Counted from the first letter of the stretch, positions 56,127 through 63,705 are shown. The stretch: DNA of 64,000 nt from Clostridia bacterium (GCA_040767365.1 JAXGOR010000004.1:134283-198282), one strand, 5' to 3'. Made by a program: numbers and translations. Notes: generated by a model not told the origin, from the sequence alone.

Positions 56127-58943
56127 ATGGATAATCTGTCAGTCACTGCAAAGCATCTGTGGGCAAAAAAATCAGTCGATCCATTAAATGGTCATCTGTC
56201 TTGGTTGCCTTTAAGTGTGCATATGACAGATACCGCTGGGGTTGCCGAAAAATTATGGGACCGCTGGCTTCCGGATCAGACAAAAGAAGCAATTCGAAGT
56301 GGCCTTAGTCCCCGTCACCAAGCTAGAGAATTATTTATTTTTCTAGCGGCTGCTCATGACATCGGCAAGGCAACGCCTGTCTTTCAGACCAAAACAACTT
56401 GGGCAGGCCGTGGTGGCCGGGCATCACCCGATTTGGATGAACGAATCTATGAGCTATTGGTAGCTACGGGATTGCCGGTGAAACCCGAAAATTTCTTCGG
56501 AAGTCCTGAAAAATCTCCACATGCCTTGGCATCACAACTACTTCTGGAGCGCTTTGGCTGTGATCGAAGCATTGCTGTCATTCTCGGTGCACATCATGGA
56601 AAACCACCCAGCTATTCCCAGCTTCAAAAGAGCGGTATCAATACCTTCCCCAGAAATTTCCATCTAGGTAAAGAGGGCAAAAATATTTGGGTGTCAGTTC
56701 AAGATGAACTCATCTCCAAATCCTCTGGATTGGGGGTTTTACAAGTATAAATGAACTTCCACAAACGAATATGGTCGCTCAAGTTTTATTGAGCGGCTTA
56801 GTGATTATGGCAGACTGGATAGCCAGCAATGAATCCCTCTTTCCCTATCAAAGCCTTGATTGGGATTCTATCCAATACATCGACGATCAACGCTCTGAAC
56901 TAGCTTGGGACAAACTGAACCTCCCCACACCTTGGAAACCAAGTTCAGCAAACAAAGATAATGATCCCTATGCGCTTCGTTTTGGCTATAAGCCAAACCG
57001 TGTACAGGCTGCTGTCTTGACGACGGCACACACAATTCAAAATCCTGGAATAATGATTTTGGAAGCACCATGAGGAGGCGGAAAAACAGAAGCAGCTCTG
57101 GCCGCTGCCGAGGTATTTGCCGGAAAATCAAAATGTTCCGGTTTATTTTTCGCCCTCCCCACCCAGGCAACCACGGATGGCATGTTCCCTCGCATAATCA
57201 ATTGGATTGACCGACTCAACGATGAACGCCTTTCAGTCAGACTTGCTCACTCGAAAGCTCAGTTCAATGAGCGGTATCAGGGTCTCCGATTGTTTGAAGG
57301 CGGCACGAATATTGGCGATGAAGAAGGGGGTGGCGTGGTCCACAGCTGGTTTGAAGGACCAAAAAAATCTCTGTTAGCCGATTTCGTAGTCGGAACAATT
57401 GACCAGTTGCTTCTTGCAGCTTTACGACAAAAGCATGTCATGTTAAGGCATCTGGGCCTGGCGGGGAAAATCATAATCATCGATGAGTGTCATGCCTATG
57501 ACGCTTTTATGAATCAGTATTTGGAAAGGATCCTGGCGTTGGCTGGGAGCTTACGAAGTACCTGTCATCATGCTTTCAGCCACCTTACCGTCGGATTCAC
57601 GTCGAATCCTTATTGAGGCCTATACGGGAATCAAAGTGATAGAAGAAGCCGAACCAGATAATTTTGGCGAAATCAAAGAAATCGCTTTTAACCCACCTGA
57701 TTGGTTGAACAATAGGGCTTATCCTCTCATCACCTACTCCGATAATGAAGTAATCAAATGCATAGAACCCGAAGCGAGCGCGCCGTCCAACAAGGTATCG
57801 ATCAGGTATCTTGCGGAGAGTTCGCTCACAAACGAGATGCGATCCCTCTTGGCCGAAGGTGGCTGCGCAGGAGTGATAGTCAATACTGTCAGGCGATCAC
57901 AGGAAATTGCTGAACAATTGAGGACAGAATTCGGCAAAGAGACTGTCAAACTCATTCATTCCCGATTTCTCGCCCCTGCCCGTATCCAAAAAGAGGGTGA
58001 ACTGCTTCGTGAATTAGGGCCGCCAAGTGAAAAGACAAAACGGCCAACACAGCGCATCTATGTTGGCACGCAGGTATTTGAGCAATCACTTGATATTGAC
58101 TTTGACGTTTTATTTACAGATATCTGTCCTATGGACCTGCTCCTTCAACGTATTGGTCGAATGCACCGGCATGAGCGGTCAAGGCCGACAAAACTTCAAG
58201 ACGCACGATGCTATGTCCTTGAAACTGAAGATGACACCTTCGAAGAAGGCTCCGCTTTTATATATGGGACCTACCTGCTTATGCGCACTAAAGCCTTGTT
58301 ACCGGATACTATCAATCTTCCCCAAGATATCAGCGTCCTCGTAGAAAACACCTATGACGACGAATTCGCCATTGCGCCTATGCCTGAAGATTACGAGATA
58401 GCGAAAAAAGAATGGAAATCCAGTCTGGAGAATAAAAGACGACGTGCACAAGCCTTCCGGATTAGTTCACCCCATGCAGATTTTGCAGAAAATATCACCA
58501 GTTGGCTCGACACAGATCTGAAATCTACGGACCCCTACGCCGAGGCCGCCGTTCGAGACACCAATGAATCTTTTGACGTGCTTCTCATCCAGCGAATTGG
58601 ACCGGGAAAATTCAAGATGATTGTAGATCCCCGCCTTGATCGACAAGAAAGCCCTCTTATCGAGGCAGATATGCCAGCTGACAGAATTGCAATGCGACTG
58701 GCCAGACAGTATATACGCCTACCTGACATATTGTGCAAACCCTGGTCAATTGACGGAACCATTGATGAACTGGAAGAAATGAATATGAAATTGATTCCCG
58801 ATTGGCAAGAATCGAATTGGTTGCGAGGAGAGTTGTTTTTGATCCTCGATGAAAATTTTCAGGTACAACTTAACGGATACCGAATAGCTTACAGCTTTGA
58901 TAATGGATTGAATCACAAAAAAGAGGAGGCAAATGATGGATAA
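56127..58943 (+). pseudogene. cas3: type I-E Cas3 (HD nuclease + SF2 helicase), disrupted by two frameshifts and one in-frame TGA
   Basis: Four track ORFs. 56079..56750 is the HD domain (LAAAHDIGKATPVFQ). 56771..57073 reads ...VLLSGLVIMADWIASNE...IMILEAP then TGA. 57182..57616 reads ...GGGKTEAALAAAE upstream in the same frame, and IIIDECHAYD. 57570..58943 reads VPVIMLSATLP.... The first frameshift lies in the G5 run at 56732-56736, where G6 would restore SGLGGFTSINELP. The TGA is at 57071-57073. The second frameshift is an extra T at 57539-57540, whose removal would restore ERILAWLGAYEVPVIMLSATLP. Confidence 0.87.
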
Positions 58944-60579
58944 AGCTGAATTCAATCTGCTCGACGAACCTTGGATCCTTGCCATGAAATCGGATGGTTC
59001 GCGTCAAGAACTCTCACTTCTTGATGTTTTCCGACGTGCTCATGAATTCGAGAGACTAGCAGGTGAATTGCCAACGCAGGATGTTGCGATCCTCCGGCTT
59101 CTTCTCGCTGTCCTTCACACGGCCTTTTCCCGATACCATCCGGATGGTTCAGAAGAAAAGACCCATAACGAGCAGGATGCGCTGAGACATTGGAAGATTC
59201 TATGGGATGAGGGCACCTTTCCGGGAGATCTCATCAATAATTATCTTAGACAACACCAAGATCGATTCTGGCTTTTTCATCCCGACAAGCCATTCTATCA
59301 AGTGGTTGACATTGGTAGATCCACCGAGTATCCCACGGCAAAACTGATAGGTGAATTGTCTGAAAGTAGCAATAAAATTCGATTGTTTTCACACCGTACG
59401 GGCTCAAGCAAGTCGGGATTATCATATCCTGAAGCAGCACGTTGGCTAATTCACATAAATGCGTTTGATGACACCTCTTCAAAAAGCAGTATCAAGGGAC
59501 TGCCCAGTCCTGGAGCTGGCTGGTTGGGAAAGATCGGGTTGATAACGGCCGTCGGAGATAATCTTTTTCAGACCCTTCTGCTCAATCTCGTCTTCATCAA
59601 TCACAGGGACAAAAGTATCTGGCCTCCTGAGAAACCTTCATGGGAAAAAGAGCTAAAAACAGATGAAAGAACCGAGATCAATGTGCCTGATAACCTGTCC
59701 GAACTATATACGATACAGTCCCGGCGTTTGCGTTTGAAACGTGAAAATGGTTCAGTTACTGGTTATCGCTTGCTCGGGGGAGACTTCTTTGTCACTGGCA
59801 ACGCCTATATTGAGCAAATGACCGTATGGCAAATAGCGGCCAAAAAAAGTGGAAGCGCAAACGAATTTTTCCCAAAACGCCACGACCCTTCCCGACAGCT
59901 TTGGAGGGACTTTTCTTCCCTGGTCGCCCAAAGTGGAAATGCACATATTCCCGGGATCGTTGCCTGGCTGGATTATCTCAGTGAACGCCAATTAATCTCT
60001 CGCCTCCATTTCCGATTTCAGACGACCTCTGTGAAATACGGAGATAAAGATATGGTTTTTGATCATATATTCAGTGATTCCATAACCTTCAATTCAAAAC
60101 TATTAGGTAAGGCCAGCGAAAGCTGGACCAATAGGATTGTCGAAGAAATCGCGACCACTGATCGCCTTGCCTATCAAGCTGGATTATTGGCCGTTAACTT
60201 GGCTAAAGCGTCGGGGAAATCGGGCGGTACCGGCAACAAGATATGGGAAACGGAATTAGATAAGGCCAAGGAGATGGTCTATTTCAGCCTGGACAACCCC
60301 TTCCGGCAATGGCTGGAGTCGATCGATCCCGAGGAAGACGACCTTGACAGTCGAATGGATGAATGGTGGGACCAAGCCAAAAAGATAACCCGAGGGATTG
60401 GCCGTGAAATGGTCAGCCTGGCTGGGCCACAAGCCCTGGTAGGAAGGAGAATCAAGGAAAAGGGCAAGGGCAAAGGTGAGGAGATTGAGCGCTCCTATAC
60501 TGCCCCCAAGGCATACAATTACTTTCTTTACAGAACATCCAACCGAAATGCATTGAAAGGAGGAAGGAAAGATGAATGA
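58933..60579 (+). CDS. casA: type I-E Cascade large subunit Cse1/CasA
   Basis: Track ORF of 548 aa: MMDKAEFNLLDEPWILAMKSDGSRQELSLLDVFRRAHEFERLAGELPTQDVAILRLLLAVLH. Confidence 0.86.
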   Translation: MMDKAEFNLLDEPWILAMKSDGSRQELSLLDVFRRAHEFERLAGELPTQDVAILRLLLAVLHTAFSRYHPDGSEEKTHNEQDALRHWKILWDEGTFPGDLINNYLRQHQDRFWLFHPDKPFYQVVDIGRSTEYPTAKLIGELSESSNKIRLFSHRTGSSKSGLSYPEAARWLIHINAFDDTSSKSSIKGLPSPGAGWLGKIGLITAVGDNLFQTLLLNLVFINHRDKSIWPPEKPSWEKELKTDERTEINVPDNLSELYTIQSRRLRLKRENGSVTGYRLLGGDFFVTGNAYIEQMTVWQIAAKKSGSANEFFPKRHDPSRQLWRDFSSLVAQSGNAHIPGIVAWLDYLSERQLISRLHFRFQTTSVKYGDKDMVFDHIFSDSITFNSKLLGKASESWTNRIVEEIATTDRLAYQAGLLAVNLAKASGKSGGTGNKIWETELDKAKEMVYFSLDNPFRQWLESIDPEEDDLDSRMDEWWDQAKKITRGIGREMVSLAGPQALVGRRIKEKGKGKGEEIERSYTAPKAYNYFLYRTSNRNALKGGRKDE

Positions 60580-63038: not shown

Positions 63039-63041
63039 GAT

Positions 63042-63705
63042 ATGTACTTGTCACGGATAGCCCTGAATGACAGACAGAGGGAAACTATGCGATTGATGGC
63101 ATCGCCTTATCTAATGCACGGTGCTATCGAGCGAAGTTTCAGTGGAGAGAAGAAACGAAACCTGTGGCGTGTTGATTGGTTGCAAGATAAGTGTTATCTG
63201 CTTTTATTAAGCCAAGAAAGGCCACATCTGTTAAATCTTGTCCAAAAATACGGATTCCCCGATTTGGACCGAGCCTATGAAACCAAGGAGTATGCGTCTT
63301 TCCTTAACAGATTGAGCGCAGGACAGATTTGGATGTTTCGCCTGTGTGCTAATCCAGTTCGGAGCAGTTTCGCAGACAGAAATGGCAACTCAAATCGCGG
63401 TAAGGTCTACGCCCACGTGACACCTGAACAACAAAGAGCCTGGTTGCTCTCAAGGATGGACAAATGCGGTTTTAATATCAGCCAAGACTCGTTTGATGTT
63501 GTTCAGTCTGAATGGAAAAATTTCGCAAAGGTAGCAAGGCAAAAAGGAGGTTTCCTTGCACATAGTCACTTTTGAAGGTGTGCTCACCATTACGGACGAA
63601 ACTGTATTCAGAGAAACCCTAATATCAGGCATTGGTCGTGCGAAAGCATACGGGTGCGGATTATTAACGCTCGCTCAAGCAAGAGAACATCCAAATGTCA
63701 AATAA
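63042..63705 (+). pseudogene. casE: type I-E Cas6e/CasE crRNA endoribonuclease, frameshifted in an A5 run
   Basis: Track ORF 63042..63575 (MYLSRIALNDRQRETMRLMASPYLMHGAIERSF...) ends prematurely. The +1 frame continues ...[44 protein letters not shown] to TAA at 63703-63705. The span is 664 nt (3n+1). One extra A in the run at 63541-63545 explains it. Confidence 0.82.

Follow-up and report, generated by a model that had tools for sequence, protein, structure and literature searches.

Gene content of the type I-E locus

The locus studied here is a set of CRISPR-associated (cas) genes at the end of a 64,000-nt stretch of a Clostridia bacterium assembly (GCA_040767365.1 JAXGOR010000004.1:134283-198282). 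We refer to this whole stretch as the window and give all positions in its coordinates. Listing of the open reading frames (ORFs) combined with NCBIfam and Pfam scans placed cas3-cse1-cse2-cas7-cas5-cas6e and the start of cas1 on the plus strand between 56127 and 64000. It is an ordinary, standard type I-E CRISPR-Cas gene cluster with the canonical gene order. Two of its genes, cas3 and cas6e, are broken by single-base insertions or deletions (indels) in this assembly. We favour, with a fair degree of confidence, the reading that these breaks are patchy assembly error in an otherwise intact system, and the real cas3 and cas6e genes are probably intact. The genes are as follows.

56127-58943, plus strand: cas3, with HD nuclease, superfamily 2 (SF2) helicase and C-terminal domain (cas3_HD, cas3_core, PRK09694)
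58936-60579, plus strand: cse1/cas8e, intact, 547 aa, with an alternative ATG at 58933 (TIGR02547, 3e-53)
60572-61159, plus strand: cse2/cas11, intact, 195 aa (TIGR02548, 5e-43)
61174-62310, plus strand: cas7e, intact, 376-378 aa (TIGR01869, 6e-89)
62307-63038, plus strand: cas5e, intact, 243 aa (TIGR01868, 3e-48)
63042-63705, plus strand: cas6e, in two frames in this assembly (TIGR01907, matched in two pieces)
63695-64000, plus strand: cas1, first 101 codons, intact up to the end of the window (the Cas1 of relatives has 332 aa)

The two signature subunits are well above the thresholds of their family models, with Cse1 scoring 181 bits against TIGR02547 (cutoff 70) and Cse2 147 bits against TIGR02548 (cutoff 28.5). 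The backbone subunits Cas7e (TIGR01869) and Cas5e (TIGR01868) score 299 and 164 bits. An earlier note, made from the DNA sequence alone, had named these genes in this order, had described cse1, cse2, cas7 and cas5 as full-length and translationally coupled, and had found the locus to be richer in AT than the core. All of this holds: NCBIfam supports the gene calls and order, each of the four family models is matched by a single intact ORF, start and stop codons overlap at cas3/cse1, cse1/cse2, cas7/cas5 and cas6e/cas1, and the operon has a GC content of 45-49% compared with about 55-66% across most of the core. An identical copy of the Cse2 protein occurs in another metagenome.

The cluster shares with the type I-E systems of Escherichia coli K-12 and Thermobifida fusca the genes cse1/cas8e, cse2/cas11, cas7e, cas5e and cas6e, a Cas3 with a fused N-terminal HD domain, and the order cas3-cse1-cse2-cas7-cas5-cas6e-cas1(-cas2). 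In relatives, the repeat that follows cas2 is of the GTGTTCCCCGC... type, also as in type I-E. Every defining feature of type I-E for which the window can be tested is present, with the cas3 frame broken in this assembly. It departs from the reference systems in the six single-base indels in cas3 and cas6e and in a Lys/Glu/Ala-rich insert in Cas7. A 21-nt tandem repeat at 61596-61660 (3.1 copies) codes for the insert, which accounts for a Cas7 length of 376-378 aa against a family profile of 325 positions.

By analogy with these systems, Cas6e would cut the precursor of the CRISPR RNA (crRNA) and stay bound to the product. Cse1, Cse2, Cas7, Cas5 and Cas6e would assemble with the crRNA into Cascade, and this complex would recognize DNA flanked by a protospacer adjacent motif, form an R-loop and recruit the HD-helicase Cas3 for processive degradation of the target. 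Cas1 and Cas2-DnaQ would add spacers to an array located just after cas2. No CRISPR array was found in the window, either by a tandem-repeat scan or by a search with the species' own repeat, in line with the earlier statement that none lies between ade and cas3.

Six single-base indels split cas3 and cas6e

We aligned the locus to contigs of the same species from other sequencing runs (L087 to L090, described in the next section). In this assembly cas3 consists of four ORF pieces that are collinear with intact homologs over about 938 codons. The four pieces cover positions 8-88, 207-309, 311-463 and 473-762 of the PRK09694 profile. Using tblastn, we found that the Cas3 proteins of intact relatives span the entire cas3 of the window in frames 3/2/3. 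The cas6e gene is in two ORF pieces, matching positions 1-164 and 161-206 of the 208 in TIGR01907 (35 and 48 bits). The contig alignments resolve the breaks as follows.

56722-56723, plus strand: cas3 lesion 1, one C deleted (CCC in L087/L088, CC here)
57068-57073, plus strand: cas3 lesion 2, one C deleted at 57068-9 (CCC to CC) and one A inserted at 57073, 3 nt apart
57536, plus strand: cas3 lesion 3, one G inserted (CCTGCG to CCTGGCG), immediately 5' of helicase motif III (SAT)
63516-63547, plus strand: cas6e lesions, one A deleted at 63516-20 (A6 to A5) and one G deleted at 63546-7 (GGG to GG)

The earlier note had counted three independent lesions in cas3; their number and sites were right, and their finer anatomy is that of four single-base indels, all inside 812 bp. 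Against L089/L090 the gap of lesion 1 aligns at ~56727, where the flanking bases differ. Reverting the four indels restores a stop-free ORF of 938 codons. According to a multiple alignment, the cas3 of the window retains each of the motifs HD, Walker A, DECH, SAT and QRxGRxxR.

Lesion 2 moves the ATG of the Walker A motif (APMGGGKT) by one base and thereby creates an in-frame TGA at 57071-57073. All six relatives in the alignment have methionine at this position, as does P0130, the 938-aa Cas3 of the same species. Judged from this alignment, the TGA is the Walker A ATG read out of register and involves no nonsense substitution; to turn ATG into TGA by substitution alone takes three changes. 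An alternative genetic code or selenocysteine was also considered for this TGA and ruled out, as the codon replaces an invariant Met and a register shift of one base suffices.

The two deletions in cas6e are 30 nt apart, and putting the deleted bases back yields 221 codons without a stop. The earlier note had located the frameshift before a catalytic and C-terminal GIGRAKAYGCGLL region. The site of the frameshift stands, and the GIGRAKAYGCGLL loop is the conserved glycine-rich RNA-binding loop of Cas6e, but the catalytic His lies in the N-terminal part (LMHGAIE), upstream of both lesions.

Contigs of the same species carry intact cas3 and cas6e

The truncated Cas3 (207 aa) and Cas6e (177 aa) of the window fall into the same 90% clusters as the 938-aa Cas3 P0130 and the 221-aa Cas6e P0128, and these clusters led to the comparator contigs. 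Searches with the repaired Cas3 had missed the near-identical intact Cas3, the cluster representative being the 207-aa fragment of the window itself. Exact look-ups of Cse1, Cas7, Cas5, adenine deaminase and the Cas6e fragment of the window had likewise given no usable match. The comparators come from four sequencing runs and represent two variants, L087 and L088, which are identical, and L089/L090. They are 97.1-97.2% identical to the window and keep the ade-cas3 context. As L089 shares the upstream genes of the window (fhs, crp-like, SIMPL, ade), the cas locus is at the same chromosomal site.

In all four contigs cas3 (938 aa) and cas6e (221 aa) are unbroken, and inside the cas genes the window differs in length from both variants by exactly the six single-base indels. 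None of the lesions in cas3 and cas6e was found in L087, L088, L089 or L090. The claim that both genes are inactivated is thus borne out for the frames of the deposited sequence. The outcome that the earlier note had named as refuting it, recovery of cas3 and cas6e by resequencing, is approximated by these four independently assembled contigs. There are no indels in cse1 compared with L086, L087 and L089. The closest relative, L086, is 99.0% identical and spans only 58792-61407, a segment that covers no lesion site. Since the comparators are ~3% diverged, they do not tightly bound the age of the indels. Outside the species, the proteins of the nearest loci are about 50-66% identical; a Cas7 scan of the genome collection gave only loci of at most 66% identity, which were used for the motif alignment. 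Several public assemblies already contain this locus, and its architecture brings nothing new.

The comparators also extend beyond the end of the window. Directly after cas1, L087-L090 have a gene for a Cas2 of 298 aa that includes an RNase_T/DnaQ-like domain (10397-11347 in L087 and 14124-15074 in L089). The repeat GTGTTCCCCGCACAGGCGGGGGTGATCC starts 25 nt past the stop codon of cas2-dnaQ, and all four contigs end inside it. Short-read assemblies typically stop at CRISPR arrays. An array very probably follows cas2 in this genome as well, outside the window, which agrees with the earlier proposal that any array must lie beyond cas2. Type I-E variants with a fusion of Cas2 and DnaQ are known as the trimmer-integrase type (PMC10284694, PMC10470216). 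The fusion observed in L087-L090 suggests that this genome, whose cas2 is beyond the window, belongs to the same variant.

Single-base deletions in secY and fhs

Single-base deletions of the same kind occur in two core genes of the window.

30796-32090, minus strand: secY (essential), single-base deletion at about 31203 (Pfam halves 1-199 and 202-306)
50605-52280, minus strand: fhs (formate-tetrahydrofolate ligase), single-base deletion at about 51270 (Pfam halves 1-337 and 337-556)

With one base added, secY encodes a 430-aa protein that aligns to the SecY of L081 without gaps and at 97% identity. For fhs, one base likewise restores a 559-aa ligase that is 98% identical to the copy in L089, where the gene is intact. 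As secY is essential, its lesion cannot be biological, and because both genes carry 1-nt deletions that are mended by one base, the assembly contains indel errors. Homopolymer lengths were compared between the window (20118-38649 and 50576-64000) and short-read contigs of the species (L082, L085, L087 and L089). All differences are contractions in the window (6:0), a pattern suggestive of systematic under-calling by the source assembly. Overall, we counted 10 single-base deletions and 3 single-base insertions.

Indels that fragment genes are a recognized failure of long-read assemblies (PMC12007338). The window resembles the long-read and flow-based errors covered there in that the indels are single-base, are mostly deletions or homopolymer contractions, hit an essential gene and are repaired by one base. 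It is unlike them in the density of indels in cas3 and cas6e, which is far above that of the remaining window.

Three further candidates for frameshift error were set aside. An IS256-family transposase (2056-3286, plus strand) is in three pieces, with one base deleted at 2309 (GGG to GG), two inserted at 2788-9 (T4 to T6) and a stop at 2894-6. At the DNA level it shares only 95% identity with an intact copy from a JGI metagenome (L095), and it may be a natural pseudogene or contain more assembly errors. Ribosomal protein L16 (36649-37275, minus strand) ends in an acidic tail of about 55 aa, which was rejected as an artefact because relatives share it (196 aa in L081, 195 aa in L082). EcfA1 and EcfA2 form a single ORF with two ABC_tran domains (23574-25415, minus strand) and are also fused in L085 of the same species (587 aa). 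The L16 tail and the EcfA1-EcfA2 fusion, both shared with relatives, are therefore real lineage traits.

Assembly error compared with recent gene loss

Under the artefact reading, six miscalled bases in two tight patches, in an assembly with demonstrated indel errors, would account for both broken genes. The true runs would be CCC at 56722, CCCATGGGA at 57068 and CTGCG at 57536, and the patches may be unpolished, low-coverage or strain-mixed stretches. In support of this, all six frame breaks are 1-nt indels, and reverting them gives complete ORFs with every catalytic motif present. The indels are clustered, with four in 812 bp of cas3 and two in 30 bp of cas6e, and it is improbable that nature produced the two indels of lesion 2 independently at a distance of 3 nt. 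Pairs of -1 and +1 are a usual form of consensus error. A patchy error process, as proposed here, would explain both the clustering and the -1/+1 pair. Within the locus, variation between strains is greatest in cas3.

The distribution of the indels weighs against this reading. The 3.5 kb of cas3 and cas6e contain six and the remaining coding DNA (about 48 kb) two, a concentration with a probability between 1e-8 and 1e-5 at a uniform rate. The spread expected of errors that are blind to gene function was not observed, as six of the eight gene-breaking indels fall into cas3 and cas6e. Other low-GC or accessory DNA is unbroken, including an ORF of 1763 aa and a partial ORF of 604 aa. The 4.4 kb of cse1, cse2, cas7, cas5 and cas1 contains no indel (P 0.007-0.04). 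Such a contrast is what is expected of real pseudogenes in an accurate assembly, and the error model requires the extra assumption of patchy quality. Two possible signs of local error were examined. A local drop in quality, seen as extra mismatches near the indels, was not diagnostic because the divergent 5' half of cas3 also varies between comparators. A shared methylation-type motif was rejected, as CATG adjoins only the fhs lesion and cas3 lesion 2 and the other sites are without it; CATG should in any case be common by chance in 64 kb, by expectation rather than count.

Taken at face value, the concentration of frame-breaking indels in two cas genes rather than the core suits a real, recent and strain-specific loss of Cas3 and Cas6e by frameshift, in which other strains are intact and decay is only beginning. 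If the assembly is accurate, selection would give such a pattern, perhaps by favouring escape from self-targeting or the entry of a mobile element. In nature, CRISPR-Cas function is commonly lost through point mutation. Several of the indels are in short homopolymers, where replication slippage also acts, and there is a slight, non-significant excess of nonsynonymous changes in cas3 and cas6e. We nevertheless regard a real loss as possible but rather doubtful. The four other contigs of the locus are all intact, and errors must be invoked anyway for secY in the same assembly. Independent mutation is an unlikely origin both for the -1/+1 pair, with its spacing of 3 nt, and for the two cas6e deletions, with theirs of 30 nt. 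Neither gene shows larger deletions, insertion sequences or nonsense codons of the substitution type. As Cascade has no function without Cas3 or Cas6e, the other Cascade genes and cas1 (4.4 kb) would be just as useless, and their freedom from indels, given above as a point against error, weighs equally against real loss.

Selection on the cas genes

Real loss further requires that cas3 and cas6e (3.5 kb) acquired six independent indels during no more than about 10% of a branch whose synonymous divergence (dS) is about 0.08. This limit comes from the substitutions. The pairwise ratio of nonsynonymous to synonymous divergence (dN/dS) against L087 is 0.185 for cas3 and 0.133 for cas6e, compared with 0.114 for cse1, 0.172 for cse2, 0.081 for cas7, 0.114 for cas5 and 0.053 for cas1. 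Clear relaxation of selection on cas3 and cas6e was therefore not seen, their ratios being near the 0.08-0.17 of the intact Cascade genes. Along the branch that leads to the window, we counted 54 synonymous against 32 nonsynonymous changes in cas3 and cas6e, and 60 against 22 in the other cas genes (Fisher p = 0.19). Likewise, cas3 is the less constrained gene when the two intact variants are compared with each other (17 synonymous and 15 nonsynonymous changes).

These data would rule out a long pseudogene history, and the test appears to weaken the decay reading. It leaves room for a short history, which counts against assembly error: the substitutions are compatible with anything from 0 to about 10% of the branch as a pseudogene, and about 10% could yield several indels if the ratio of indels to substitutions is high. 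The early decay suggested by the earlier note is thus possible, yet it is not the best reading in view of the intact comparators, the deletions in secY and fhs, and the dN/dS values.

A mixture of one or two real lesions, such as one founding frameshift in cas3, with assembly errors at the remaining sites would combine errors that do exist with an enrichment in cas3 and cas6e that is hard to explain through errors alone. We consider it improbable. Nothing separates real from erroneous lesions, as all six are 1-nt indels and all six are absent from the comparators.

The earlier note had also raised, as the less likely option, a Cascade retained without its nuclease for another role. Here Cas3 and Cas6e would be truly lost, and Cse1-Cse2-Cas7-Cas5 would be kept as a Cas6e-independent, RNA-guided DNA binder, e.g. 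for silencing. The six lesions do spare the four structural genes (dN/dS 0.08-0.17), and at face value their distribution over the genes agrees less well with neutral decay of the locus as a whole than with this option. However, the low dN/dS spans the whole branch and is silent on the time after the lesions, and cas3 and cas6e have equally low values. In type I-E systems, Cas6e makes the crRNA and is itself a subunit of Cascade, and its loss removes the supply of guides, a conflict that the earlier note had also pointed out. Pfam and NCBIfam scans of the ORFs revealed no second cas6 and no gene for Tn7-like transposition, and the window has no array. Lacking positive support and in conflict with the loss of Cas6e, this option seems to us highly improbable, the least credible of those considered.

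The same holds for a comparison with natural derivatives of Cascade that lack Cas3, such as the Tn7-like CRISPR-associated transposons (CASTs; I-F3 and I-B) and type IV systems. The likeness is at face value only and consists in intact Cascade genes next to a broken nuclease gene. Unlike in these derivatives, cas3 is full-length and collinear here rather than deleted, and cas6e is also hit, whereas CASTs and type IV systems retain the enzyme that processes crRNA. Neither tnsABC nor tniQ was found in the Pfam and NCBIfam scans of the window ORFs.

The only unusual claim attached to this locus is the selective loss of cas3 and cas6e, and it is probably not going to survive. If the breaks are artefacts, the case is a cautionary one, as six miscalled bases can mimic the selective loss of a nuclease and a processing enzyme. 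A cheap check against over-interpretation is to compare independent assemblies of the same species and to look for frameshifts in nearby essential genes. If the lesions are real, they represent a modest case of recent, strain-level inactivation of CRISPR-Cas in a gut Clostridia species in which other strains retain the system. Its relevance would be mainly to studies of autoimmunity escape.

Other features of the window

Apart from the cas locus, three regions of the window stand out. The ORF of 1763 aa (3759-9050, minus strand) encodes a predicted surface protein with FG-GAP repeats, fn3 and InlB-B-repeat-like domains and a C-terminal membrane anchor. Its gene is downstream of genes for an extracytoplasmic function (ECF) sigma factor and a PrsW protease (9084-11280). 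A low-GC patch at 11300-13800 (44-47%) contains few ORFs, among them a SocA/Panacea-domain antitoxin-like gene (12251-12688) and a ribbon-helix-helix gene (13285-13602), and could be a mobile or toxin-antitoxin remnant. Finally, about 1.7 kb at 41850-43600, between a gene of the metallo-beta-lactamase fold and the S10 operon, is absent from L081, which is 90% identical. The segment, whose product of 462 aa has an HTH_38 domain, could be a transposase-like insertion.

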